A stretch of 19,676 nucleotides of DNA from Promethearchaeota archaeon. Its GTDB lineage: Archaea; Asgardarchaeota; Lokiarchaeia; Sigyniarchaeales; SOKP01. The notes under the pieces are model-generated. The model did no database searches and was not told where the DNA came from. It saw only the letters and a list, made by a program, of their open reading frames with translations. Within the stretch, counting starts at the first letter, position 1, and the number at the start of each line of letters is the position of its first letter. The translations under genes were made by a program, and so were the position numbers. The DNA is taken from assembly GCA_048941015.1 (NCBI GenBank), contig JBHLNZ010000055.1:1-19676 (forward strand), given 5' to 3'. This document shows, piece after piece, positions 1,437 to 15,816 of the stretch.

Positions 1437-4193
1437 TTACTGAATAATTGTCATTCCTTTATCTTCTAAAGGCTTCCCCTCAGCTTTACCTAAGAAATAT
1501 GGATCAATTATAGAAGAAATTTGTTTAAAATCATAATGTCGAGGATCTATGGCTTTTAAACGGCATGTTGCGGAGCATTTTCCACAACCCTTACAGATTG
1601 CAGGATTAATATATGCTTTTTTAGTGGGTATACTAATATCTTCATATTCTTGCTTTACATCGATAAGAGAAATTGCTTTAAACTGACATATCTCAGCACA
1701 CTGTCCACACCCATTACATTTATCTGTGTTAACCTTCATATCCTTAAAGAAACATTCAATGGATAACAAGAATGATAATAATTCTAATTTAGTCGATGAT
1801 ATTTCTTTCAAACTTAAAAATCTGCTTGCTCTCCCAGCTGCTCCATTTGCCTCTAATATCGAGTCTTGAATATTTTTTGGCCATTGAGCACATCCACATA
1901 TAAATATACCATGAGCAGCAAAATCAAGGGGTCTAAGTTTTTCATGCGCTTCTATAAAAAATCCATGTTCGTCTAACGGTACATTCAATTTATTAGCAAG
2001 GTCTTGTAAATCATCAGGTGGAATCATAGGTGTGGATAGGATAATAAGATCTGTCTCTACTTTAATAATGTCACTTGGATCGATAATGCTCGGTACTTTA
2101 ATTTCATATTTTTCAGGATCATCACTTAGTTTAATTACTGATGGTATATGCTTAAGATCATACTTCAAATAATTCGCAATTTTTTTTCTCTTGGATACAT
2201 ATTTTTCAAACTCCTTTTTTGCCATATGAAGTTCTCTGAAAAGGACTAATGTTTCTAAATCAGTCTTAATTTCTTTCAAAACTTGTACATTTTTAATTGT
2301 ATTACTACAACATACATTTGAACAATAAGAAATCCCTCCTTTCTGCCTTGCATTCACACACATAATTGTTGTAACGTGTTTGATGTTGTTCAGCCATGAT
2401 TTATCTTCATACTTTAGTCTTTGCTCCAATTCCTGCTGAGTTATTATGTTTTTATTTTGTTTATTATATTCAAAAAGGCCATGAGGTTTAAATTCAATAC
2501 TTCCGGTCGCAACTATTATAACTCCAACTTCAATTTTACAAGTTTCGGCGGAATTTGCTATAGTTATATTATAATTACCAATGGAACCATTTACATTTTC
2601 TATTTTTGAATTTAAAATAGTTTTAATGTTTTTATTATCTTCCACTTGCTTTTCAATTTCTTCTAAATAATTAGATGCAGGTTGATTAGTTGGATATAAA
2701 ACATTAATATGATTTAAATTACCTCCTAGTTTATTTTCTTTTTCTACTATTATTGTTTCAAATCCTTGGTTGCTAATATTTAGGGCTGCTGTCATTCCAG
2801 ATATGCCTCCACCGATAATAAGAGCTCGTGGTGTAATTTTAATAGTTTCTTCTTCAGGTTTAATGTCTATTCCTCTTTCTCTCGTTTGAGTATATCTAAC
2901 AGGATTCAAAAATGTGGCTACCTGGGAAGCTACACCACTCGCATTAACTACTGTTTCAGAGATATTCATTGGTCCCTGACAAAATCCGCATAAATAAACA
3001 CCATTTCTCGAAGAGAGAGACTTTTCGAAGTAAGATTTTTCTTGAAAGAATCCAAAATCATCTAATTTAATTTTGAGCAGTTTGGCTAAATCTTTTGTTC
3101 CACTAGAAGGAACTAAAGGTGCTGCTAACACAACTAAATTTGCTCTATAACTCTTATCTATATCCCCTGTTTTTAAATCATCATAATGAATAATTAAGTC
3201 AGTAGTTTCTGGATCTTCTTCGATAGATTTAATATTTGAATTTATATAGCTTATATTAAAATCAGATTGAGCTTTTTTAGTATATTCATAGAAATTTTTC
3301 CCGAATACCCTTATATTATGTCTAAATATATAAATCTGAGAATCTTCAATATAATTCTTGGTGAGGATTGCATCTTTAGTTGTATACATACAACAAACAC
3401 GTGAACAATAAGGTATGTTTTCTACCAAATAACTTGAACCTGGACAGTGAATGAAAGCAATGCTTTGAGGCTCACTATCATCACTTGGTCGAAGAATTTG
3501 ATTTCCAAATGGTCCTGTAGGACATAGAATTCTTTCATATTCTAAAGCATTAACAACATTTTTAAAATGATATCCCCATTTTGGTGATAATTTGTTACCA
3601 AGCATATCGAATCCAGTAGCTACAACAATAGCACCAACTTTTAAATTAATCTCCTGAGGCTTCTGATCAAAATCTATAGCTTCACCCTTGCATACTTTTT
3701 TACATACTCCACATACGTTTCTGTTTAAATATAGACATAACTCAGGATCTATTATATAAACCGGAGGCGTAGCTTGTGGAAATGGCATATAAATTGACTT
3801 TCTTTTGCCTAAATTCATATCGAATATATTTGGAGTTTCAACTTTTGGACATTTGGCAGCACAATCCCCGCAACCTTTACATTTGGATTCGTCAACATAT
3901 CTTGGTTTTTTAAGAATAGTAATTTCAAAATTTCCTGCATTTCCCGATAACTTCTGTACCTCAGATAATGTATACAATTGAATATTTGGATTTCTATAGA
4001 CTGCAACCATTTTAGGGGCAAGGATACAAAGACTACAATCATTTGCAGGGAATAGTTTATCAAATTGAGCCATGTGCCCTCCAATTGACGGCTCTCTCTC
4101 TACTAAATAAACCTTAAACCCAAGTTCAGTTAGATCTAAAGAACATTGAATTCCTGCGATACCACCACCAATAACTAACACTGATCCTTCCAT
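1437..4193 (-). CDS. hdrA: HdrA-like tandem flavoprotein (two FAD modules, ferredoxin domains), lacking the internal CHCG Fe-S domain
   Basis: 918 aa; VIGGGIAG and IIGGGISG FAD motifs, FPANDCSLC, CKGCGDC/CGVCKKVC, YCSRVCC, YCSNVCC, C-terminal CNGCGQC/CKGCGKC; colinear with the 1028-aa paralog apart from a ~139-aa deletion; SD-like AGGGTG 8 nt before ATG. Confidence 0.9.
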   Translation of the reverse strand: MEGSVLVIGGGIAGIQCSLDLTELGFKVYLVEREPSIGGHMAQFDKLFPANDCSLCILAPKMVAVYRNPNIQLYTLSEVQKLSGNAGNFEITILKKPRYVDESKCKGCGDCAAKCPKVETPNIFDMNLGKRKSIYMPFPQATPPVYIIDPELCLYLNRNVCGVCKKVCKGEAIDFDQKPQEINLKVGAIVVATGFDMLGNKLSPKWGYHFKNVVNALEYERILCPTGPFGNQILRPSDDSEPQSIAFIHCPGSSYLVENIPYCSRVCCMYTTKDAILTKNYIEDSQIYIFRHNIRVFGKNFYEYTKKAQSDFNISYINSNIKSIEEDPETTDLIIHYDDLKTGDIDKSYRANLVVLAAPLVPSSGTKDLAKLLKIKLDDFGFFQEKSYFEKSLSSRNGVYLCGFCQGPMNISETVVNASGVASQVATFLNPVRYTQTRERGIDIKPEEETIKITPRALIIGGGISGMTAALNISNQGFETIIVEKENKLGGNLNHINVLYPTNQPASNYLEEIEKQVEDNKNIKTILNSKIENVNGSIGNYNITIANSAETCKIEVGVIIVATGSIEFKPHGLFEYNKQNKNIITQQELEQRLKYEDKSWLNNIKHVTTIMCVNARQKGGISYCSNVCCSNTIKNVQVLKEIKTDLETLVLFRELHMAKKEFEKYVSKRKKIANYLKYDLKHIPSVIKLSDDPEKYEIKVPSIIDPSDIIKVETDLIILSTPMIPPDDLQDLANKLNVPLDEHGFFIEAHEKLRPLDFAAHGIFICGCAQWPKNIQDSILEANGAAGRASRFLSLKEISSTKLELLSFLLSIECFFKDMKVNTDKCNGCGQCAEICQFKAISLIDVKQEYEDISIPTKKAYINPAICKGCGKCSATCRLKAIDPRHYDFKQISSIIDPYFLGKAEGKPLEDKGMTIIQ

Positions 4194-4671: not shown

Positions 4672-5658
4672 TTAATTTGATAATATTACAGAGTCTAACA
4701 GTTCAATAAGAGCTGACAAATCAAAAGGTTTTATGAAGTATCCATCTACACCCGTTTCCTCTTTTTTACTCTTTACTATCTCTTCAGGATAAGCAGTCTC
4801 ATAGAAAATAGGTATATGCTTTAAATTATTATTTCCTTTAATCTGCTTGCATACTTCATAACCCTTCAGGTACCCATCAGGTAACCTTATGTCTAACAAT
4901 ATTATTTTTGGTATTGATGCTTTCAATTGATTTAATCCTCCTTGACCTGTTGTAGCTATTTTATAAGAATAACCTTTCTTTTTAAAAATTTCTTCGAAAA
5001 AGTGAATAGTTGGTGGATTATCTTCAATCAATAAAACATCAATATATTTTCCTCCTTTATTATTCGAAATTTTCGATTCAAGTAACTGACATTGTTCATA
5101 TATATTTTCAATAGCATTTGCTACTTTATTGCTTAGCTCTTCTTTATATTCATTTAATAGTAATTCTGAAAATCCTTTTATTGCTGTAAGAGATTCTTTC
5201 ACCTCAAATAGAATTTTGGATATATCTTTATCATCCATATTAGATTCAAATATTGATGAATCTAAATGGTGCTTTATGTAATAATCAACACCAACTCTGA
5301 TTAATTTTGAAAAGGATGCAAAACTTTCATTACCTTCTATAAATTCATACCATTGTTTCTTTTTTTTTTCAGAAATATAAAAGGAAATCCTCTCTTTAGA
5401 GCGTTCATATACTTTTTGACCTGTTAAATATCGCCGAAAGGGATTTGTGACCCTTCCTTCCCATACAGCAGATTTACCAGTTTCTTTTTTATATTCTATT
5501 TGTTTTTCTCTAAGCACATCTTTACTTAATCCAAGTTGTTGGATTTCCTTATCATTATAAATTGTTTCTAGATTCTCTTCCATAATTCTATATTCTTTCT
5601 TATCATCGTTTTCTTTCTCATCATCATCATTTTTTTCATTGGTTGAAATTAATCTCAC
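4672..5658 (-). CDS. Response regulator: N-terminal ribbon-helix-helix-like segment, degenerate HisKA-like helices, C-terminal receiver domain
   Basis: REC motifs LLIEDN, ILLDIRLP (D256), FYETA, FIKPF; KERISFYISEKKKKQW...SFSKLIRVGVDYYI resembles RHH; LFEVKESLTAIKGFSELL resembles an H-box without His. Start uncertain (GTG 5658 or ATG 5583). Confidence 0.8.
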   Translation of the reverse strand: MRLISTNEKNDDDEKENDDKKEYRIMEENLETIYNDKEIQQLGLSKDVLREKQIEYKKETGKSAVWEGRVTNPFRRYLTGQKVYERSKERISFYISEKKKKQWYEFIEGNESFASFSKLIRVGVDYYIKHHLDSSIFESNMDDKDISKILFEVKESLTAIKGFSELLLNEYKEELSNKVANAIENIYEQCQLLESKISNNKGGKYIDVLLIEDNPPTIHFFEEIFKKKGYSYKIATTGQGGLNQLKASIPKIILLDIRLPDGYLKGYEVCKQIKGNNNLKHIPIFYETAYPEEIVKSKKEETGVDGYFIKPFDLSALIELLDSVILSN

Positions 5659-5841: not shown

Positions 5842-6279
5842 TTATAAGACTTTTAGTGGGCCTAACTCTTTAATCTCATTTGTAAATTCTGTTATTAAGT
5901 CTGCAAAACGTTTACCTTCTGAAGCACTTACCCATTCCAGACGCACTCGCTTTTCATTTATACCTAATTGTTTAATAATAATATTATGCAATCTTTCAAA
6001 TCTTTCCCTGGCATATTCATTACCAGAGATATAATGACAGTCACCAATATGACACCCCGTTATTAAAACACCATCAGCACCATCCTTCAAGGCCCTGATT
6101 ATAAAAGAAGGATCAACCCTTCCTGAACACATTACACGTACAATTCTCATATTTGGAGGGTATTGAAACCTTGAAACTCCAGCTAAATCAGCTCCAGCAT
6201 AAGAACACCAATTACAACAAAAAACCAAAATTTCTGGATTAAAATCTGGATACTTTACTTTAGATTTTGCTTTTGGCAT
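5842..6279 (-). CDS. mvhD: MvhD/FlpD [2Fe-2S] subunit, Cys form
   Basis: FCCNWCSYAGADLAG, RVMCSGRVDP, GADGVLITGCHIGDCHY, WVSASEG are hallmark MvhD motifs. Confidence 0.95.
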   Translation of the reverse strand: MPKAKSKVKYPDFNPEILVFCCNWCSYAGADLAGVSRFQYPPNMRIVRVMCSGRVDPSFIIRALKDGADGVLITGCHIGDCHYISGNEYARERFERLHNIIIKQLGINEKRVRLEWVSASEGKRFADLITEFTNEIKELGPLKVL

Positions 6280-6299
6280 AATACATTACCTTTCCATTG

Positions 6300-9200
6300 T
6301 TATGTTTCTAATAAAAATGATTCAATCATAGCAGTTATTTGATCAAAATCATACTGCTTTATAGATATCGCCCCATTCGGGCAAGTTGCAGCACATGTGC
6401 CACAACCTTTACATAAGGCAGAATTTATGAAAGATTTTTTAACTATGAGACTTACATCTTCAAATTCTTTTGTTGATTCCAAAATATCTATAGCATTGTA
6501 AGGGCACACAGATTCGCATTTTCCACATCCGATACAATTTTCTGGATCTGTTTCAGCAACGATGCCTGATGTCGTTATTTCCTTGGCGTTTAAAAATCTA
6601 CTAGCTCTACCTGCTGCCCCATTTGCTTGAGAGATAGTATCTTGAATATTTTTTGGCCATTGAGCACAACCACAAAGAAATATACCATCTGTAGCAAAAT
6701 CTAAGGGCCTTAATTTCACATGAGCTTCAAGAAAAAAGCCGTTTTTATCTAATGGAACTTTTAACATCTTAGCCAATTCCTCTAAATTATCAGCAGGAAT
6801 TATGGGAGTTGATAATATAATCATATCAGTTTCAAATTCAAGAAAATCGTGCAAATTAGTATCATATAATTTAATTTCGTACTTTTCAGGACTTTTACTC
6901 TTTTTATTAATTATGGGAAGATTATCCAAATCATATCTTAGGAAAATTGCATCTTTTCTTCTTTCTCGATAATATTCTTCATATTTCTTCTTTGCCATTT
7001 GAAGATCTCTATAAAGCACAATTATCTCAAGGTTAGGTTTTAGTTTTTTTAAAAGACTAACATTTTTAATTGAATTCCCGCAACATATATTGGAACAGTA
7101 AGTAATTCCCTCTGATTGTCTTGCATTTACACATAAAATTGTAGTTATTCGATTTATATTTCTAAGCCAATCTCCTCCTTCTTCTTTCAGCTTTTGTTCT
7201 AATTCTAATTGGGTTAAAACATTTCTATTGTCTTTCTTATATTGAAATAAATCTTTAGGTTTTAACTCTTGTCCTCCAGTGGCAACAATGATCGTTCCAA
7301 TACTTAATTCTTGCACTTTATTTTTTGAATCAGCGACAGAAACAATATAATTACCAACATATCCTTTAACGTCTTTGACTTTCGCATTTAAGAAAACTTG
7401 AATAATATCATTTTTATTAACTTTTTCTATCGTTTGATTTAAAAATTCTGAGGCGTTTTCTTCAATCGGATATAATACATTAAGGTGATTTAAATTCCCA
7501 CCTAATATTTTTTCCTTTTCGACTATAAATGTTTTGAATCCTTGGCTTGCGATATTTAATGCGGCAGTCATTCCAGCAATTCCACCACCAATGACTAAAG
7601 CTGTAGGAGTGATCTTTAATAGTTCTTCTTTTAAGGGTTTCAATAATCTTGATTTCGCAACAGCCATTCGGATTAAATCTTTAGCTTTTTGAGTTGCAGC
7701 TTCTGCATCATCCATGTGAACCCAAGAACATTGATCTCTTATATTTACCATTTCAAATAAATATTTATTCAAACCCGCTTCTTGACAGGTTTCTTGAAAT
7801 AAAGATTCATGAGTCCTTGGCGTACAAGATGCAACTATAAATCGATTTAAATTATAATTCTTTATTAATTCCTTAATTCGAGCTTGGGAATCAGAACTAC
7901 AGGAATACAAATTATCTTCACAATGAACAACATTCGGTAAAGTTCTTACATATTCTGCCAGTAGAGGTACATGAACATACTTACCTATATTTATTCCACA
8001 ATGACAGATGAGAACACCAATTCTAGGTTCATCTGTAACTTTAACTTCTAACTCTAGTACTTCGATTACTTTTTCTTTAATTTCGTTAAACTTTACAGAA
8101 TTTAAGAATGAAGTGACCTGTCCTGCTACACCACTTGCATCAGCAACAGTTTCTGGGATGTCCATTGGTCCCTGACAAAATCCACATAAATAGATACCCT
8201 CTCTTGTTGATTGGGATTTATGATAATAATCTTTTTCTTTAAAAAAGTTATAATTATCAAGTTCAACTTTCAAAATATCTGACAACCCTTTGGTTCCTTC
8301 AGACGGGACTAATGGGGTTGCTAGTACTACTAGATTAGCTTTAAAATCATGAAATTCGCCTGTTTTTAAATCTTCATAATGAATTATTAGATCTTTACTT
8401 TCTGGATCTTCTTCAATTTTACTTATTTTTGTTTGAAAATATTTTACGCCATACTCTTTTTGAGCCCTTTGTGTAAATTCATAGAAATTTTTACCGTAAG
8501 CTCTTATATCGTGCCGAAATACAAAACATTTCGATTTTTCTGAATGCTCTTTTGTTATAATAGCTTCTTTGGCAGTATACATACAACATACACTAGAACA
8601 ATATGGTACATTCTCATGCAAATCTCTTGAGCCAGCACATTGTATAAAAGCAATTTTTTCAGGTTCATTCTGATCACTCGGTCTTAGGACATGGCCACCA
8701 AAAGGTCCTGAAGCACATAAGATTCTTTCATATTCAAGTGCACTTACCACATTATCAAATCGGTATCCCCATCTTGAAGTTAAATTTTCCGCAGGCATAT
8801 CAAATCCAGTGGCAACAACTATACAACCAACATTTAATTCAATTTCCTTCGGTTTTTGCTCAAAATCGATTGCTTCAGCTTGACAAACTTTTGCACAAAC
8901 TCCACATACATCTTTGTTTATTTTCAAGCATAATTCTGGATCTATTAAATAAACGGGAGGAACAGCTTGAGGAAATGGAATATATGCTGACTTTCTTTTA
9001 CCTAAATTCATATCAAAGAGGTTGGGAACTTCTATTTTAGGACACTTAGAAGCACAGTCACCACATCCTTTACATTTTGTCTCATCTATATATCGGGGTT
9101 TCTTAAGAACTTTTACTTGAAAATCTCCAGCTTTACCAGAGACTTCTTGTACTTCATGGAATGTCATGAGTTCGATATTTGGGTTTCTGAAAACTTCGAC

Positions 9201-9386
9201 CATTTTAGGTGCAAGTATACATAAACTACAATCATTTGTTGGAAATGTCTTATCAAGTTGAGCCATCCTTCCTCCTATTGAGGGCGATTTTTCAACCAAA
9301 TATACTTTATAACCTAATTCTGTTAAATCTAACGAAGTTTGAATTCCAGCGATTCCACCACCAATAACTAAAACTGAACCCTCCAT
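6300..9386 (-). CDS. hdrA: Large tandem HdrA-like flavoprotein (two FAD modules, internal CHCG Fe-S domain, ferredoxin domains), all Cys
   Basis: 1028 aa; GGGIAG twice, QLDKTFPTNDCSLC, FIQCAGSR...CSSVCC, RIGVLICHCG...ASCTPRTHE...NIRDQCSWVH, EAHVKLRPLD, C-terminal 2x CxxCxxCxxxCP; start overlaps upstream stop (TAATG at 9386). Confidence 0.95.
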   Translation of the reverse strand: MEGSVLVIGGGIAGIQTSLDLTELGYKVYLVEKSPSIGGRMAQLDKTFPTNDCSLCILAPKMVEVFRNPNIELMTFHEVQEVSGKAGDFQVKVLKKPRYIDETKCKGCGDCASKCPKIEVPNLFDMNLGKRKSAYIPFPQAVPPVYLIDPELCLKINKDVCGVCAKVCQAEAIDFEQKPKEIELNVGCIVVATGFDMPAENLTSRWGYRFDNVVSALEYERILCASGPFGGHVLRPSDQNEPEKIAFIQCAGSRDLHENVPYCSSVCCMYTAKEAIITKEHSEKSKCFVFRHDIRAYGKNFYEFTQRAQKEYGVKYFQTKISKIEEDPESKDLIIHYEDLKTGEFHDFKANLVVLATPLVPSEGTKGLSDILKVELDNYNFFKEKDYYHKSQSTREGIYLCGFCQGPMDIPETVADASGVAGQVTSFLNSVKFNEIKEKVIEVLELEVKVTDEPRIGVLICHCGINIGKYVHVPLLAEYVRTLPNVVHCEDNLYSCSSDSQARIKELIKNYNLNRFIVASCTPRTHESLFQETCQEAGLNKYLFEMVNIRDQCSWVHMDDAEAATQKAKDLIRMAVAKSRLLKPLKEELLKITPTALVIGGGIAGMTAALNIASQGFKTFIVEKEKILGGNLNHLNVLYPIEENASEFLNQTIEKVNKNDIIQVFLNAKVKDVKGYVGNYIVSVADSKNKVQELSIGTIIVATGGQELKPKDLFQYKKDNRNVLTQLELEQKLKEEGGDWLRNINRITTILCVNARQSEGITYCSNICCGNSIKNVSLLKKLKPNLEIIVLYRDLQMAKKKYEEYYRERRKDAIFLRYDLDNLPIINKKSKSPEKYEIKLYDTNLHDFLEFETDMIILSTPIIPADNLEELAKMLKVPLDKNGFFLEAHVKLRPLDFATDGIFLCGCAQWPKNIQDTISQANGAAGRASRFLNAKEITTSGIVAETDPENCIGCGKCESVCPYNAIDILESTKEFEDVSLIVKKSFINSALCKGCGTCAATCPNGAISIKQYDFDQITAMIESFLLET

Positions 9387-10657
9387 TATTTCTTTTTATC
9401 ACCACTATTTTTAGATTCAATAACTTCTATATGATCGACAAGGAATTCAGAAAAATCTAAAATTTGGATTGATGCGATATCTTCAAAATCATTTTGAAGA
9501 CAAGAAAAATGAATATTACATTTTGGGCAGCTAGTGACTAATTTTAAAGCAGTTGATTTAACTTCCTGCATACGTTTATATCTTAAAGCTTTTGATTTTT
9601 CATTACAATTCATCCATGAATTTACTCCACAACATAAGGTATTTACTTTATTATGAGGCATTTCGTTGAATTTATAGCCTAATTTATTAAATTCTTTAAA
9701 AATTTCTCTTGTTTCTTCAATAATTTTACTATCTTCGGGTAAAAATCGACTTAAACGACATGGATCATGATAAGTGAAGGTAATATCTTCATGATTTTTA
9801 TTTGGGTTTGTAAATTTTATTTTCTTTTCTTTCCAATTTTCATAAACATATTCAATTATGTGTTTAACATCTACTTTTTCGCCATATTCTTCAAAAATTT
9901 TTGCATAATCAACCTTAAGAGTTCGATAACATTCTGCACAAGCCGTAACAATTGAAGTGATTCCCGCTTTTTGAAACATTTCTAAATTTTTCTTAGCTAA
10001 CTTAATAAAGGTCTTTAATTTCCCTTGACCCCAATAAATATCATGTCCACAACAAACCTCTTCCTTAAAAACAACAATAGGTTGTTCTTCAATTTGACAG
10101 AGAATTTTTAATGTGCTTGTGGCAATAGAAGTAGGATTTTCAAATTCATAATTGAAGAAGGGTAAACATCCTACATAATATAATAAATTTCCTTTATTTG
10201 ATACTTTACATCCTTTTGGAACCCAGTCCATATTCCTGCTTGTGTTAATATAGGGACGGCTCATTATTTCAGAAATAGTAGTATACATTCCTTTATGGGC
10301 AACTAATTCATCAGAATTCTGATTTTTTTCATGTCTCATTTTATAACGAGCCATTCTTACAATATCAGCAAAATTAATTTTTTCTGGACAATCTTTAAGG
10401 CATTGATTACAGGTTAAACAATCCCATAAAACCCCACTTTCTAAAACTTTATCTTCAAAACCTTCTAAAATTAGCTGAATTATTTTACTTGGAGTATATT
10501 TCTCAACTTTACTTAATTGACATACTCCACTGCATCTTCCACACTGATAACATTTCTTTAATAAATTTCTTAATTGAGGTTCATAGACTTTTTCTAAATA
10601 TTCATATGTATCTGCAAAAAGCTTTTTCCTCTCTATATCACGTTTTGATTCGGTTAT
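9386..10657 (-). CDS. hdrD: HdrD/GlpC-like Fe-S oxidoreductase (2x[4Fe-4S] HdrC-like domain + two CCG domains), about 423 aa, probable non-canonical ATA start
   Basis: Frame is open from 10675 through the track ORF 10354-9386 and encodes CYQCGRCSGVC and WDCLTCNQCLKDCP upstream of the first ATG; CCG motifs YYVGC/EVCCG/TACAEC and YHDPC/LCCG/TSCPKC; GAGGT SD at 10669-10665 lies 7 nt before ATA at 10657. Exact start is inferred. Confidence 0.85.
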   Translation of the reverse strand: MTESKRDIERKKLFADTYEYLEKVYEPQLRNLLKKCYQCGRCSGVCQLSKVEKYTPSKIIQLILEGFEDKVLESGVLWDCLTCNQCLKDCPEKINFADIVRMARYKMRHEKNQNSDELVAHKGMYTTISEIMSRPYINTSRNMDWVPKGCKVSNKGNLLYYVGCLPFFNYEFENPTSIATSTLKILCQIEEQPIVVFKEEVCCGHDIYWGQGKLKTFIKLAKKNLEMFQKAGITSIVTACAECYRTLKVDYAKIFEEYGEKVDVKHIIEYVYENWKEKKIKFTNPNKNHEDITFTYHDPCRLSRFLPEDSKIIEETREIFKEFNKLGYKFNEMPHNKVNTLCCGVNSWMNCNEKSKALRYKRMQEVKSTALKLVTSCPKCNIHFSCLQNDFEDIASIQILDFSEFLVDHIEVIESKNSGDKKK

Positions 10658-10670
10658 GATTTTTACCTCT

Positions 10671-11783
10671 TTAACTTAAATTTTTCATAAATTCTTCTCT
10701 ACGTTTAATTTTAGCTTTTGAAAATTGAGTTATCAAATTTATCGTTTTATTCTTTTTTGTTTCGTCAAGATCTAATGCTCTTATTACTCCTGCATCTAAA
10801 GCTTTCTTTAACACATCCTTTCCTTTTTTAGTTCTTGGAATTACAGTAGTGTATTTATCTTGTGAACCCAAACCTCCAAAAGAAATATCTGCATAAATAT
10901 TTGTAAAATCATTGCATGCATTGCAAGCAGGACGCATGTAATCCTTTAAATGGTTAAATGGAACATGAATGACTCTTTCTCCACTTCCGATATCTTTTAA
11001 CTTGAAGATAACATCTTCTTTAATGTTTATTTTCTGGATGTCAGTAAATTTTATGTTAAAATCTTTCTCAAATTTTACTATTTGCATTTTTTCAAAGAAA
11101 AAGTTTTCATAACAAAATAAACCAAGACAAATCTCAATATTTTCAGAAGGAGTTACTCCTAAATCTTGCATACACCTTATTGTATAAAGTTGGCATGGAG
11201 TCCCCACTACCGCTAATTTCTTAAATTTATAGTGATTCAATTTTGGAATAGAATGTGTGTATGTACAGAATTTCTGAATTTCATCAAGATGTGGAGAGAT
11301 ATCCAATTTAGCTCCCGATGCTTTAATAAGATCATATTTACTATCAGCAAAAGTAGCTTCTCTCGAGAAAGGAGCATCAGTTTTCGAAACAATAGATCCA
11401 TCAATCAAATTCTTTTCAATTAAGAAGTTAATAATTGAGTTTACTACTCCACCGTCAGTTCCATAATTCAAAAACTCCTTATCTGTTGCTTGACAGGAAT
11501 AAACATCTTCAAAATGCCCAATTGGCAGTAAATTATAATCTGAAAATTGATACGTTTTATTTAACTCATCATCTAATACATGAGTTTGGGGGCAGATACA
11601 ATAACAAATTCCACATTCAAGGCACTTATCTTTATTTAAATATTCAGGAGGTTTGTATGGATCTTTTAATCCAATAACATCATATTCTGCTGAGCTACAA
11701 AAACTAACACAGCCCCCACATTCTTGACATATACCTCTCTTATGAACCTCCTCAATAAGATCTTGAAATGTTTTTGTATTCAT
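10671..11783 (-). CDS. Coenzyme F420 hydrogenase/dehydrogenase beta-subunit family protein (FrhB/FdhB-like) with N-terminal ferredoxin
   Basis: CQECGGCVSFC, CLECGICYCICP, TDGGVV, VVGTPCQ, LGLFCYENF, CNACNDF..YADISFGGLGS. Confidence 0.9.
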   Translation of the reverse strand: MNTKTFQDLIEEVHKRGICQECGGCVSFCSSAEYDVIGLKDPYKPPEYLNKDKCLECGICYCICPQTHVLDDELNKTYQFSDYNLLPIGHFEDVYSCQATDKEFLNYGTDGGVVNSIINFLIEKNLIDGSIVSKTDAPFSREATFADSKYDLIKASGAKLDISPHLDEIQKFCTYTHSIPKLNHYKFKKLAVVGTPCQLYTIRCMQDLGVTPSENIEICLGLFCYENFFFEKMQIVKFEKDFNIKFTDIQKINIKEDVIFKLKDIGSGERVIHVPFNHLKDYMRPACNACNDFTNIYADISFGGLGSQDKYTTVIPRTKKGKDVLKKALDAGVIRALDLDETKKNKTINLITQFSKAKIKRREEFMKNLS

Positions 11784-11793
11784 ATTTGTTTTA

Positions 11794-13299
11794 TCAACTA
11801 TTCTTGTGGTTTTCTAATACAATTGGTTTACAATTTTTTCTTTTTGATGCTGCTATTCTTTCTAGAAGCCCTTGCCCTGGTTTGACATCTTTTAAACTCT
11901 GATATTCAATCAGGCCAGCATCAGCAGCTCCTTTAAAAACTTCATCTCCTTCTTTAGATCTTGTAATTACTGATGAATATCCTCCTTGCGAGCCAATAGA
12001 TCCCACTGAGATATCTGCATAATCTGAAGTTAAGTCTCCACAGTAATGACAATTATTTCTTGCATATGATTTAACTTCTTTTAGATCAACTGACATCTCT
12101 TCTCCAGATTTTAAATTTATAATAAATTTTCCCTTATCTATATTCATTTTGGTCAATTCATTTATATCCTGATCAAATTTATCCTTTGTTAATTTGATGA
12201 TATCCGCATAAGAAAAGGATTCCATACAAAATAATCCTATTTTGTACTTTATATTTTTAAAAAAAGGAAATCCACTAGGAAATAAAGATCCTTTTTCTAA
12301 CGCTCTCATCATACATGGAACACCTACAACAGCAAGTTTATCATACTTTTTCGCTTGATCTATAATTGTTAATGAAGAAGCATTAGCATATTTTGTACCA
12401 CCAGTTTTATATAAATCTTTTACACTTTCTATTATTACTGGTTCAGGTCTCCATAAATCTTTTGAATGTTGAACAGCAATAACAGCATCTACTAATTTAT
12501 TTTCTAATAAATATTCTAAAATAGATGTTACAATTCCACCATCTTGACGTACCTTCTTAATTTCATCCTTAGTAGTACTTGCGGTATAAGCATTAACATA
12601 TCCTCCAATCTTTTCAGAATAGGTCAATGATTTATCTATTTTCTTAATACTTTTATAAGCTTGATTTATTGAAAAGGAGCTAGGGCATACGGTAAAGCAT
12701 AAACCGCATTTCATACAAATTTCTTCATCTATTTTAAGAGTATCTGCGGTAACCTTGATGGCATTTACAGGGCAAACTGAAGAACACCATCCACAATGGC
12801 AACATACTCCCGAATCAAATACGATTGAAACAGGTTCAAAATAATGCTCAATAAAAGTATTTGGTAATTCTTTAGCTTGATATCTGTAAAAATATTCTTC
12901 CTCTTCAACCTCTTTTTCTTCTCCCTTTATCTTCTTTATTACTTTTTTTTTTATAACTTCAATATGTTCTTCTACGTATCCTTGTTCTTTTAAGTATATA
13001 ACATCTCGTATTACGTTTTCAGAAGGGAAATCTTTAATCTTTTTAGCGATTTCCTCCAAAAATAAAGGTTTATCTCCTATTATCTTTTCTAAGACTATTT
13101 TACGTTCGGTTTCAGCATCGATCATAGCATCTAAAATTTCATAGAACTCTTGCTCAGAGTATTTTCCAGATTTTAAAATTTCTTCTTTTGCTTCGAAAAA
13201 AGCTCTCACTTGAAAATTTTCTGAAGCTTTATAAGTGGCATCCAATAAATCTTTAGGAGAAATCCTACTAAATAGTTTATTATTTACTATTTGAACCAT
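11794..13299 (-). CDS. FrhB/FdhB-family protein with ~150-aa N-terminal helical/winged-helix-like extension and ferredoxin domain
   Basis: CCHCGWCSSVCP, CMKCGLCFTVCP, QDGGIVT, GGTKY, VGVPC, IGLFCMESF, CHYCGD...ADISVGSIGS; N-terminal LFLEEIAKKI...SENVIRDVIYLKEQGYV is wHTH-like. Confidence 0.9.
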   Translation of the reverse strand: MVQIVNNKLFSRISPKDLLDATYKASENFQVRAFFEAKEEILKSGKYSEQEFYEILDAMIDAETERKIVLEKIIGDKPLFLEEIAKKIKDFPSENVIRDVIYLKEQGYVEEHIEVIKKKVIKKIKGEEKEVEEEEYFYRYQAKELPNTFIEHYFEPVSIVFDSGVCCHCGWCSSVCPVNAIKVTADTLKIDEEICMKCGLCFTVCPSSFSINQAYKSIKKIDKSLTYSEKIGGYVNAYTASTTKDEIKKVRQDGGIVTSILEYLLENKLVDAVIAVQHSKDLWRPEPVIIESVKDLYKTGGTKYANASSLTIIDQAKKYDKLAVVGVPCMMRALEKGSLFPSGFPFFKNIKYKIGLFCMESFSYADIIKLTKDKFDQDINELTKMNIDKGKFIINLKSGEEMSVDLKEVKSYARNNCHYCGDLTSDYADISVGSIGSQGGYSSVITRSKEGDEVFKGAADAGLIEYQSLKDVKPGQGLLERIAASKRKNCKPIVLENHKNS

Positions 13300-13353
13300 A
13301 TTCCAGTCATTTTATTTCCTATACTAAAAAAATTCATTTTATTATTAACAATT

Positions 13354-13375
13354 AAAAACCCCTCCCTTTGCGAGG
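13354..13375 (-). terminator. Short GC hairpin plus U-tract downstream of the SECIS (possible terminator or processing site)
   Basis: Minus strand CCUC-GCAAAGG-GAGG followed by GGUUUUU; only a 4-bp stem. Confidence 0.3.
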
Positions 13376-13378
13376 TAA

Positions 13379-13414
13379 GTCGTCTTATAACTAATATTTG
13401 ATTATAAGATTCAT
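13379..13414 (-). ncRNA. Eukaryote-like (Lokiarchaeota-type) SECIS element in the 3' UTR of mvhD(Sec)
   Basis: Minus strand AUGAA-UCUUAUAAU-CAAAUAUUA-GUUAUAAGA-CGAC: AUGA...GA core, 8 Watson-Crick pairs plus one U-G pair, AAA in the apical loop; begins 1 nt after the UAG stop of a gene with UGA at Cys positions. Confidence 0.85.
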
Positions 13415-13415
13415 T

Positions 13416-13868
13416 CTATGGGGTAGTTACTACTTTTTTTTTTGAAGATTTTATATTCATGACATTTATCGGATTTGGTCCAGCTCGCTTGACTTTTTCA
13501 AAGGCATCCTCAACACTTTTAACTAACTTTTCTGATTCTGCTGAGCTTAACCAATACATATTAACTCTTTGGCTTCCAAAACCTCTTGATTCTAATATTC
13601 TATTCGCTAAATCAACATGTTTTTGAGCTGTATAATTCCCTTTCTTAAATTGGCACTCATCTGGCCTTCATCCGACAACCATAACGCCGTCAGCTCCTGA
13701 TTTAATAGTATATAAGATATGCTTAACATCGACTCTTCCCGTACACTTAACTTTAATGATTTTTACCGAAGGAGTATACTTTAAACGAGCAACTCCAGCC
13801 AAATCCGCAGCACCATATCCTCACTTTAAACAAGCAAACATAATTATATTAAATTTATAATCTTCCAT
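13416..13868 (-). CDS. vhuD: Selenocysteine-containing MvhD/VhuD [2Fe-2S] subunit (150 aa; U16, U67), absent from the ORF track
   Basis: Manual translation MEDYKFNIIMFACLK-U-GYGAADLAGVARLKYTPSVKIIKVKCTGRVD...GADGVMVVG-U-RPDECQFKKGN...WLSSAESEK...GPNPIN...TTP*; TGA at 13823-13821 and 13670-13668 align to Cys in the paralog at 5842-6279; SD GGAGGT upstream; ends with TAG. Confidence 0.93.
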
Positions 13869-13875
13869 CTTTTGT

Positions 13876-15816
13876 CTAACCTCCTTCTAATAATCCATCG
13901 ATTTCAGCAAATAGTTGGTGATCCCGGTAATACCTAATGTCTATAGCTTGTGTGGGGCAACAAGTAGCGCATATTCCGCATCCATCACAATTAGTTTCAT
14001 CAACAACCGCTCCCTTTTCAAAAATAATTTTGATTGCCTTTTTAGGACATTCTTTTTCGCATCTTCGACAAGAAATACAGAAATCATTATTTACATCAGC
14101 AGTAATAAGTTCAATTTGTATTTTTCCTGGTGCTGTTAGTTCTGCAACTTTACTGGCTGCTGCTCTAGCTTGTGACACAGAGTAAGCAATATCCTTTGGA
14201 CCCTGAGCGAAACCAGCGATAAATATACCCTTTGATTTAGTTTCTTGTGGCATTAAACCAAAGTGAGATTCAGTTAAAAATCCATACTTATCGGCATCTA
14301 AATTTAATGCTTTAATAATTTGATGGGTTCCTTCAGATGGTAATGCAGCAGTAGATAATACAACTAAATCAGCGTCTATTTTAATAATTTCATCTGTTAG
14401 TGATGAGTATACTCTAACTTTAACATTTTTAGTTGCCGGATCTTCTGATATTTCGCCTACTTTACCTCGAATCATTCTAATATCTGAATCCTTAGCTCTT
14501 TGGTAATATTCTTCGAACCCTTTTTCATTAGTTCTAATATCGATATAACAAATAGTAATATTCGCATCTGGAAACTCCTCTTTGAGTAGCTTTCCATTCT
14601 TTAAAGCAAGCATACAACAAACTCCACTACAGTAGGTTCTTTCTGCTTCTCTGCTACCAACACATTGGATGAAGAGTATTTCCTTTGGTTTTTTGTTATC
14701 CGAAACACGCCTGACATGACCTTCTAAGGGACCATTAGGCGCCAGCATCCTTTCTAATTGGGCTTGAGTTATTACATTTTCAAATTCTCCATAACCATAC
14801 TCACCATATGGTTCATGAATATCCCAACCAGTTGCTATTATAATTGTTCCAACTTTGAACTTAACTTCCTCAGGCACTTGACTGAAATCAATAGCATCAA
14901 GTTCACAAGCTTCCACACAACTAAAACATTCAACACATGACTCGCGATGAACATCATATAAAAACGGTACCGCTTGACCAAAAGCGATATCAATTGCTTT
15001 TCGAGATCCGAGATTTTCATCGAAGTAATTAGATGTATATACAGGACAAACTTCAGTACACGCTCCACATCCATTACAAGTTTCATTGACATATCTCGGT
15101 TTCATTTCAACGGTTACATCATAATTTCCAACATAACCTGAAACTTCTTTTACCTCGCTAAAACTAAGAATTTCGATATTTTCATGGCGATTAACTTCGA
15201 GCATTTTTGGACCACAGATTCATATAGCGCAATCATCAGTGGGAAATGTTCTGTCTAATTGAGCCATCCTTCCACCAATAGTTGTTTTACTTTCTACTAA
15301 ATAAACTTTAATGCCTTCATTAGCGAGATCTAAAGCAGCATTCATTCCTGCTATACCTCCACCCACGATTAAAGTTGCTTTTTCTACAGGGACTGTTTTA
15401 ATTGGGACAACTTCTAACTCTTTTGCTCGTTCGATACCGCTTTTAACCAGAATCTTTGCTTTTTCTAATGCTTCATCACTATTTTCTGTGCACCATGAGC
15501 AATGTTCTCTTACATTTACCATCTGGAAATAGTAAGGATTTAAATCGGTTTTAGCTATCGATCCCCTATAAATTGGTTCATGAGTTCTTGGTGTTCAAGC
15601 AGATGCTACGATTCGAGTTAACCTTTTTTCTTTAATATCTTCTATTATTTGATTTTGTCCGCTTTCTGTGCATAAAAATGCATGTGTTTTTGCGACCACT
15701 ACATCATCCATTTCTTTCGCAAATTCAGCTAATTTATCGCAATTTATTTTGCCTCGAATATTAATACCTCAATGACACGCGTAGAAACCAATCCGATGCT
15801 TTTCAGATTTTTCCAT
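13876..15816 (-). CDS. hdrA: Selenocysteine-containing heterodisulfide reductase subunit A (646 aa; U16, U74, U199)
   Basis: One frame from ATG 15816: MEKSEKHRIGFYACH-U-GINI...RIVASA-U-TPRTHE...NVREHCSWC...GGGIAG...QLDRTFPTDDCAI-U-ICGPKMLEV..., joining track ORFs 15220-15522 and 13876-15204; TGA at 15771-15769, 15597-15595 and 15222-15220 each align to Cys in the 1028-aa paralog (CHCG, ASCTPRTHE, DCSLCIL). Confidence 0.93.

Follow-up and report, generated by a model that had tools for sequence, protein, structure and literature searches.

The Elp-Hdr complex (ElpABC-HdrABC) of Methanothermobacter marburgensis (PDB 8RVU), purified and solved by cryo-electron microscopy, is an F420H2-dependent bifurcating enzyme in which electrons pass from F420H2 to the FAD of the FdhB-like ElpB subunit, then through clusters to the N-terminal domain of HdrA and the [2Fe-2S] cluster of ElpC (MvhD), and finally to the bifurcating FAD (PMC12350162). 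Bifurcation by HdrA is likewise hydrogenase-independent in the FdhAB-MvhD-HdrABC complex of Methanospirillum hungatei (7BKB), and HdrA2B2C2 is an F420H2-dependent bifurcating heterodisulfide reductase (Hdr; PMC8498797). In the class II benzoyl-CoA reductase (BCRII) of Geobacter metallireducens, the BamDEF unit consists of the HdrD-like BamD, the fused HdrA dimer BamE with seven [4Fe-4S] clusters and two FADs, and the MvhD-like BamF, which contains selenocysteine (Sec) in Geobacter (10.64898/2026.04.10.717634). FwdI and ACDS-zeta of Ca. Ethanoperedens thermophilum (8RJA, 8RIU) are plug-in subunits that reduce F420 in vitro (PMC11493965). Clusters of frhB, hdrA and mvhD have been described in Korarchaeia (PMC10667645), HdrA/FrhB clusters with tandem or fused HdrAs in anaerobic methanotrophic archaea (ANME; PMC9012536), duplicated HdrA fusions, some with MvhD, in Thor- and Lokiarchaeota (PMC11237513), and multi-Sec HdrA-VhuD pairs with one shared lokiSECIS in Lokiarchaeota (PMC4989117; PMC11227280). 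Here we describe a cluster of seven co-oriented genes, HdrA(Sec)-MvhD(Sec)-FrhB1-FrhB2-HdrD-like-double HdrA-MvhD(Cys), at positions 5842-15816 on the minus strand of a Lokiarchaeial contig (JBHLNZ010000055.1; the whole stretch of 19,676 nucleotides was analysed and is referred to below as the window), which, on balance, we interpret as F420-linked, hydrogenase-free, two-module HdrA bifurcating (or, in reverse, confurcating) machinery. The window spans the entire contig C131 of a metagenome-assembled genome (MAG) of 3.59 Mb that is 95% complete and has a G+C content of ~30% (G000; C-numbers below denote contigs of this host genome and L-numbers individual loci).

The seven genes are tightly spaced, with gaps in gene order of 7, 116, 10, 10-13, -1 (an overlap) and 20 nt; a preliminary description of this DNA gave the same co-oriented array and coordinates, interrupted only by the 116-nt SECIS (selenocysteine insertion sequence) gap, and these details hold, the other gaps ranging from -1 to 20 nt. 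Its statement that the cluster is hydrogenase-free also stands, as no MvhA/G, FrhA/G, FdhA, other molybdopterin-type open reading frame (ORF) or separate HdrB/HdrC is present among the ORFs of the window. Compared with Elp-Hdr and FdhAB-MvhD-HdrABC, the cluster displays the same, in this case predicted, combination of hydrogenase-independent bifurcation by HdrA, F420H2 oxidation by an FrhB/FdhB-family flavoprotein and an MvhD adaptor, and shares with both complexes the HdrA motifs that contain Cys197, Glu356 and Lys409; the route from an FrhB/FdhB-type subunit via MvhD to HdrA, which the preliminary description invoked, is experimentally established in Elp-Hdr (PMC12350162). Unlike these complexes, the cluster encodes neither ElpA (a truncated FdhA) nor FdhA and is thus not an Elp-Hdr proper; its F420 module is of the FrhB/FwdI type, with an N-terminal ferredoxin domain and three clusters, HdrB and HdrC are fused, HdrA and MvhD together carry five Sec residues, a fused double HdrA is present in addition, and no Mcr or coenzyme M (CoM) genes were found.

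In the numbering of M. thermolithotrophicus HdrA (5odc_A), to which all HdrA units were aligned, the Glu of the L/Y-E motif corresponds to Glu356, the Lys of CCxxxxK to Lys409 and the second Cys of DCxxC to Cys197. Glu356 and Lys409 are kept in HdrA(Sec) and in each half of the double HdrA, as had been claimed for all HdrA modules of the cluster. HdrA(Sec) possesses the features that define the family, namely a thioredoxin reductase (TrxR)-like FAD core, the Cys194/197 pair, in which Sec (codon 199) takes the place of Cys197, Glu356, Lys409 and a four-Cys cluster by the FAD. HdrA2 is the best NCBIfam model for every HdrA here and, through its MvhD domain, for MvhD(Cys), but HdrA(Sec) and the double HdrA score 772 and 980 bits, under the HdrA2 cut-off of 1100, and 600 and 739 bits against the HdrA model, with its cut-off of 1400; they are thus HdrA-family proteins rather than equivalogs of the methanogen enzymes. 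The cluster further differs from HdrA2B2C2 in that MvhD is encoded by a separate gene, that there are separate FrhB subunits and that the host is not a methanogen. Both MvhD proteins match PF02662 across the whole model, with E-values of 1.5e-43 for MvhD(Sec), for which VhuD is the best NCBIfam model, and 1e-56 for MvhD(Cys).

The double HdrA does not consist of two complete copies. The N-terminal half contains the FAD/TrxR core, the Cys194/197 pair and the inserted ferredoxin domain and lacks both the N-terminal and the C-terminal domain, whereas the C-terminal half contains the N-terminal Fe-S domain, an FAD/TrxR core without Cys197 or the inserted domain, and the C-terminal ferredoxin domain; together, the motifs fit seven [4Fe-4S] clusters, two FAD sites and one donor-arm domain. 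In the AlphaFold2 (AF2) model (pLDDT 82, pTM 0.85), residues 452-1020 match residues 2-645 of HdrA (Z 32), and residues 1-432 match residues 150-576 (Z 31). We regard this protein as a fused pseudo-heterodimer and HdrA(Sec), 43% identical to it, as an ordinary HdrA for which a homodimer is expected. In ANME, tandem or fused HdrAs show the same complementarity of halves, with one N-terminal domain and one Cys197 (PMC9012536), except that the N-terminal domain belongs to the N-terminal HdrA unit in ANME and to the C-terminal unit here. In gene content, BamDEF offers a parallel: the HdrD-like, fused HdrA and MvhD-like genes form the same unit with the same cofactor inventory, a likeness of published architecture and not of aligned sequences. 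There are also clear differences: the input subunit is FrhB2 in the cluster and the NuoEFG-like BamGHI in BCRII; both FAD sites of the cluster protein keep the Lys, whereas the second site of BamE has Gln; and all ten CCG Cys are present in the HdrD-like protein, in contrast to BamD, in which the distal cluster is degenerate and which reduces electron-transferring flavoprotein (ETF). Neither a BamBC tungsten enzyme of the AOR type nor BamGHI adjoins the DEF-like genes in the window, so the resemblance to BCRII is confined to the DEF-like architecture.

Both FrhB proteins belong to the FrhB family by their Pfam domains (FrhB_FdhB_N and FrhB_FdhB_C), FrhB1 also by its modelled fold, and in both, a 2x[4Fe-4S] ferredoxin domain precedes the FrhB core. 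The nearest PDB sequence of FrhB1 is FrhB itself (3zfs_C, E 1e-53), and the core of its AF2 model (pLDDT 85.6) superimposes on FrhB with TM-scores of 0.87-0.89 and a root-mean-square deviation of 1.5 A. The nearest solved relative of FrhB2 is FwdI (8rja_E, E 3e-43, almost full length); like FwdI and ACDS-zeta, which are of the same length, FrhB2 consists of a 2x[4Fe-4S] ferredoxin domain and an FrhB-type FAD/[4Fe-4S] domain, but its partner would be HdrA/MvhD, not Fwd or CODH. The top PDB matches of both proteins are exclusively F420-dependent enzymes (FrhB, 1e-53; FwdI, 3e-43 to 9e-50; Fsr), and FdhB and ElpB are far more distant (1e-24 to 1e-7). This homology, together with the F420 biosynthesis genes in the genome, suggests that FrhB1 and FrhB2 use F420. 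In the AF2 model, the first 150 residues of FrhB1 (12850-13299) form a helical bundle and a winged helix with a long beta-hairpin; this extension is 28% identical over 108 aa (pairwise E 1e-4) to the C-terminal tail of a long MvhD encoded in the same genome (L032:16283-17059), which suggests a docking domain that is placed on FrhB1 where MvhD is short and contains Sec.

The HdrD-like protein combines eight ferredoxin-type Cys with two five-Cys CCG motifs, as expected of an HdrC-HdrB fusion, and 17 of these 18 ligand Cys (all eight of the ferredoxin type and nine of the ten CCG Cys) are invariant across 18 orthologs. The exception is Cys244, which closes the first CCG motif; 14 of the 18 orthologs retain it and four do not, a loss reminiscent of BamD homologues, for which a degenerate distal non-cubane cluster has been reported. 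The best named model, TfrB, scores 127 bits against a cut-off of 385, so no specific HdrD subfamily can be assigned. The ORF has no ATG, GTG or TTG start for 107 codons, and translation probably begins at an AUA at 10657 or an AUC at 10660, after a GAGGT Shine-Dalgarno sequence; a GAGGTG-like Shine-Dalgarno sequence followed by ATA/ATT-ACA-GAA is conserved among the orthologs, and L021 has ATG at exactly the ATA codon, so non-canonical initiation at AUA (or AUU) looks conserved in the family.

HdrA(Sec), MvhD(Sec) and the element that follows them match the multi-Sec HdrA-VhuD pairs of Lokiarchaeota closely: the Sec residues occupy the same positions, one SECIS follows VhuD, and HdrA ends on a stop codon other than UGA. 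The published lokiSECIS, one element of which serves both hdrA and vhuD (PMC4989117, PMC11227280), corresponds to the element at 13300-13415, which begins right after the mvhD stop with AUGA, followed by a stem of 8-9 bp, an A-rich apical loop and GA; the downstream FrhB-FrhB-HdrD-double HdrA-MvhD genes are not discussed in these two papers. The TGA codons at the Sec positions of HdrA and MvhD are kept in all 17 orthologs examined, and the element is kept across 23 loci with compensatory changes in the stem, L004, L007 and L018 among them. Support for the SECIS comes from this conservation and covariation because folding of the 116-nt gap as a single sequence is uninformative (no better than shuffles, z -0.08); the absence of Rfam matches (E<=1) in the entire window says nothing against it, given that Rfam has no lokiSECIS model. 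The GGGG of the gap could pair with CCCC just before the mvhD stop and so close a lower helix. On the 3' side, a conserved small hairpin (CCUYGCAAAGG) is followed by the run GGGGUUUUU (conserved T5), a possible archaeal terminator that could split the cluster into two transcripts. In seven orthologs (L005, L007, L010, L014, L017, L018 and L022), a fourth Sec occurs at HdrA codon ~49, the remaining Cys ligand of the N-terminal cluster, so that all four ligands of this cluster would be Sec; in genus g4 (L024, L025), there is an extra Sec at codon 291, within the inserted ferredoxin domain (CVE-U-YAC). At the end of frhB1 (11791-11796), 1.5 kb downstream of the SECIS, TGA is immediately followed by TAA, and most orthologs have TAA there.

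To determine the spread of the cluster, FrhB1 was searched against 301 genomes of the phylum, and synteny was compared across 22 loci. Full-length FrhB1 orthologs (54-88% identity) are found only in the GTDB family of the host, in genera g1, g2, g4, g5, g6, g8 and g9; at 1e-20, none was detected in the seven genomes of the sister family, and the other families yielded matches at the paralog level only. The seven-gene order recurs in ~20 loci from seven genera, with protein identities of 54-93%, and is kept wherever the contig is long enough, so the arrangement is more than chance; the exceptions among the 22 loci are the absence of frhB2 in two and, in some, a paralogous or additional double hdrA-mvhD pair. 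Conserved synteny, for which the preliminary description had called for a survey across Asgard and Bathyarchaeia, is thus borne out, albeit for the exact cluster within a single Lokiarchaeial (Promethearchaeia) family. Close homologs are labelled Promethearchaeota, Promethearchaeia or Lokiarchaeota. An Asgard-wide distribution, which the 'Thor/Hod/Odin/Hermod' labels of some homologs with 78-83% identity seemed to indicate, was rejected given the confinement of FrhB1 orthologs to one family.

Partial copies of the cluster show where its seams lie. A paralogous HdrA(Sec)-MvhD(Sec)-FrhB1-like trio (35-40% identity) stands alone beside the genes for ribosomal proteins S13, S4 and S11 in six genomes; a different family of the phylum has the trio by itself in L073, and in L074, it directly follows HdrD-double HdrA-MvhD, that is, with the opposite order of modules and without FrhB2. 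In the host genome, HdrD-like or HdrC-like genes accompany double HdrA-MvhD paralogs on C84 and C110, and on C3, an FrhB2-like gene (44% identity) follows a double HdrA-MvhD unit. The C3 cluster (L032:8720-19983) contains, in order, a double HdrA split into genes of 414 and 562 aa by a TGA in the linker, an MvhD of the long form, a fused double HdrA, another MvhD, two Fer4 proteins, a PyrK-like gene and the FrhB2-like gene, so that fused and split double HdrA coexist in one genome. Because the parts are repeatedly adjacent and yet able to exist apart, the cluster is best understood as composed of two modules, A (HdrA(Sec)-MvhD(Sec)-FrhB1) and B (FrhB2-HdrD-double HdrA-MvhD). Pairing of FrhB1 with the Sec arm is supported by the stand-alone paralogous trio, and that of FrhB2 with the double HdrA by adjacency and by the paralogous cluster on C3.

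The preliminary description had asked for a check of F420 biosynthesis, and the genome does encode CofD, two CofE and CofH (469 bits, above the cut-off) with an adjacent CofG-like gene; the F420-dependent Mtd is present as well, and Mer has no strict match, only LLM-type matches below the cut-off. A non-methanogenic host, which had been presumed, is corroborated in that McrA was not found in the genome and close homologs carry Asgard labels. At least 14 HdrA genes, 13 MvhD domains (four with TGA), 43 CCG domains in ~22 proteins and 10 FrhB domains are encoded in this genome, along with EtfAB. On C85 (L033:2788-10696), a NuoF-like gene, a 1102-aa molybdopterin oxidoreductase of the NuoG/FdhA type and a 910-aa FrhB-GltD/NfnB-like fusion lie in a row, a candidate formate- or NAD(P)H-linked F420 system.

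The mechanism that we envisage for the cluster, in which F420 as the substrate, bifurcation itself, the contacts between subunits, the direction of flow and the acceptor are all predicted, would by analogy place FrhB-type flavoproteins, one for each HdrA unit, at the mid-potential electron gate in lieu of a hydrogenase or formate dehydrogenase. F420H2 would donate a hydride to the FAD of FrhB, from which electrons would move via FrhB's three [4Fe-4S] clusters to the N-terminal Fe-S domain of HdrA, the [2Fe-2S] cluster of MvhD and the HdrA flavin. There the electrons would be split: one branch would reach ferredoxin, the low-potential partner, by way of the C-terminal ferredoxin domain and the inserted one, and the other would run through the cluster of the TrxR domain to the HdrD-like fusion, the high-potential exit, whose two non-cubane clusters would reduce a disulfide or a protein acceptor, e.g., ETF, as BamD does. 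Module B would act as a BamDEF-like unit that carries two FADs, a single donor arm and one ferredoxin domain each of the inserted and the C-terminal kind. Flow could proceed either as F420H2 oxidation or as ferredoxin- and thiol-driven reduction of F420 that would feed Mtd and the methyl branch. Physiologically, the likely role would be to let a Lokiarchaeon that lives by fermentation or acetogenesis exchange reducing power among ferredoxin, a thiol/disulfide pool and the F420 pool, on which at least Mtd draws.

Several observations weigh against this interpretation. No protein of the cluster reaches an NCBIfam equivalog cut-off, there is no biochemistry for any Asgard Hdr, and F420 itself is undemonstrated in Asgard archaea (PMC8498797). 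By sequence, the two FrhBs are of the FrhB/FwdI/Fsr type rather than of the FdhB/ElpB type known to dock on MvhD-HdrA, to which one PDB search gave matches of just 1e-24 to 1e-19. The stand-alone copies of the trio have no adjoining gene for a CCG protein, so that the trio may not bifurcate at all. McrA, ComA and DsrC were not found in the 95%-complete MAG, and no candidate disulfide was found; the absence of ComA is weak evidence because ComA was also missed in a Methanosarcina control. By analogy, the acceptor might not be a disulfide at all, considering that the HdrD-like subunit of BCRII reduces ETF and that the host encodes EtfAB. An alternative is that the FrhB-like subunits do not use F420 and serve as FAD/Fe-S wires or bind another carrier, e.g., ferredoxin or NAD(P)H; the cluster would then be a system resembling Hdr/Flx and linked to one of these two. 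The FrhB family does include non-F420 members, such as HCAR, which uses ferredoxin and is among the sequence and structure matches (5dqr); the G(T)RY of FrhB and FwdI is GAKL in FrhB2, the scores remain under the frhB equivalog cut-off, and the 10 FrhB-domain genes of the genome occur in very different contexts, e.g., the GltD-like fusion beside FdhA/NuoF. However, HCAR ranks far below the closest sequence and structure neighbors, all of which are F420 enzymes, and the genome carries both F420 biosynthesis genes and Mtd, so we consider this alternative improbable. A link to H2 seems more remote still: the only [NiFe] hydrogenase of the genome, of the Mvh type with small and large subunits (MvhG-like, 252 aa, and MvhA-like, 436 aa; C53, L003:4072-8673), could in principle partner with the MvhD and HdrA proteins of the cluster, but it directly follows its own 848-aa HdrA-MvhD fusion, with no HdrB/C seen on the 10-kb contig, and is therefore an unlikely partner for the seven-gene cluster, which carries candidate donor modules of its own; besides, 13 MvhD domains face a single hydrogenase.

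The relationship between the two modules is a separate issue. The preliminary description depicted two parallel arms that share one HdrD, and neither element of this picture is supported: the trio occurs without a CCG neighbor and HdrD travels with double HdrA-MvhD (L074, C84 and C110), and the arms are not equivalent, one being an ordinary HdrA and the other a fused pseudo-heterodimer with a single donor-arm domain. Still, the adjacency of the seven genes in seven genera, the renewed vicinity of the modules, in changed order, in another family, the single CCG gene in the cluster and the coupling of two bifurcation-type modules within one BCRII complex (10.64898/2026.04.10.717634) would all be compatible with a single supercomplex in which the HdrA(Sec) dimer arm and the double-HdrA arm, each with its own FrhB-MvhD, converge on one HdrD, perhaps coupled serially like the two flavin modules of BCRII. 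We find this arrangement rather unlikely, considering the solitary trios in six genomes and in L073, the 1-nt overlap of the hdrD-like gene with double hdrA, the HdrD-like companions of double HdrA-MvhD on C84 and C110, the single inserted ferredoxin domain of the double HdrA, which leads one to expect only one HdrC-type docking site, and the conserved T-run after the SECIS that may end a first transcript. The side-by-side presence of Sec and Cys versions of HdrA and MvhD also brings to mind selenium-dependent and -independent isoenzymes, such as Vhu/Vhc and HdrA(u)/HdrA(c) of Methanococcus, which switches such isoforms by selenium supply (PMC11097638). This explanation is very unlikely given that the two HdrAs are only 43% identical and differ in architecture, single versus fused double, and that both arms are kept in every cluster-bearing genome, adjacent and on the same strand. 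On balance, we retain the interpretation of the cluster as two F420-linked modules.

The remaining ORFs of the window encode a major facilitator superfamily transporter, a second double HdrA, a response regulator, a tetratricopeptide repeat protein and an epimerase (see Table 1 for the coordinates of the main features). The second double HdrA keeps the DCSLC pair and, lacking the N-terminal Fe-S domain, has no obvious MvhD/donor arm; in at least 12 of the 22 loci, its gene is found 0.4-4 kb downstream of the cluster. The receiver-domain gene between it and the cluster has a counterpart at the same place in L008 (72% identity). A scan for sigma-70 promoters and intrinsic terminators returned 55 sites against 53 expected and is uninformative for an archaeon.

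Table 1. Coordinates of the seven-gene cluster and of adjacent features in the window
Feature	Positions	Strand	Description
hdrA (Sec type)	13876-15816	-	646 aa, full-length; in-frame TGA at codons 16, 74 and 199; stop TAG
mvhD/vhuD (Sec type)	13416-13868	-	150 aa; 2 TGA = 2 Sec; PF02662
gap with lokiSECIS	13300-13415	-	116 nt; AUGA, stem, A-rich loop, GA
frhB1	11794-13299	-	501 aa; N-extension + 2x[4Fe-4S] ferredoxin domain + FrhB core; Pfam
frhB2	10671-11783	-	370 aa; 2x[4Fe-4S] ferredoxin domain + FrhB core; Pfam
hdrD-like (HdrC+HdrB fusion)	9386-10660	-	424 aa; 2x CxxCxxCxxxC + two complete CCG motifs
fused double hdrA	6300-9386	-	1028 aa; two HdrA-like halves
mvhD (Cys type)	5842-6279	-	145 aa; PF02662
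response-regulator-type gene (receiver-domain protein)	4672-5658	-	328 aa; between the cluster and the second double hdrA
second double hdrA (outside the seven-gene cluster)	1437-4193	-	918 aa; without the N-terminal Fe-S (donor-arm) domain

The cluster is a wiring variant of enzymes characterised in methanogens, and every component and most of the pairings have already been published, as has the notion of coupling HdrA modules to F420; we found no description of the conserved seven-gene combination in the literature searched. That combination unites an Elp-like arm with an FrhB-type subunit, a BamDEF-like unit for which FrhB2 would be the input and, although Mcr was not found in the organism, a complete CCG site. 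Such a cluster will not surprise a specialist, but it is a good target for biochemistry, and a single locus sets a BamDEF-like fused HdrA unit beside an Elp-like F420 arm.

Why non-methanogenic archaea keep many Hdr genes, and which disulfide they reduce, is an acknowledged open question (e.g., PMC10667645). A speculative answer, to which we assign a low probability, is that Lokiarchaeia operate a large thiol/disulfide electron hub on a low-molecular-weight or protein disulfide, with this cluster as the F420 node. In this scenario, the cluster would form a supercomplex in which each protomer has three FAD sites of the bifurcation type and only F420H2 or ferredoxin supplies electrons, with selenium-ligated Fe-S clusters tuning the donor arm. 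A hub of this kind would fit the numbers of HdrA, MvhD, CCG and FrhB domains in the one genome. Asgard archaea are central to models of the origin of eukaryotes that hinge on the disposal of reducing power, and the compact, conserved cluster is a defined target that could show whether F420, ferredoxin and thiols are coupled by bifurcation in Lokiarchaeia, and which thiol is involved. If the hub exists, the closest prokaryotic relatives of eukaryotes would have a non-methanogenic counterpart of the CoM-S-S-CoB cycle.

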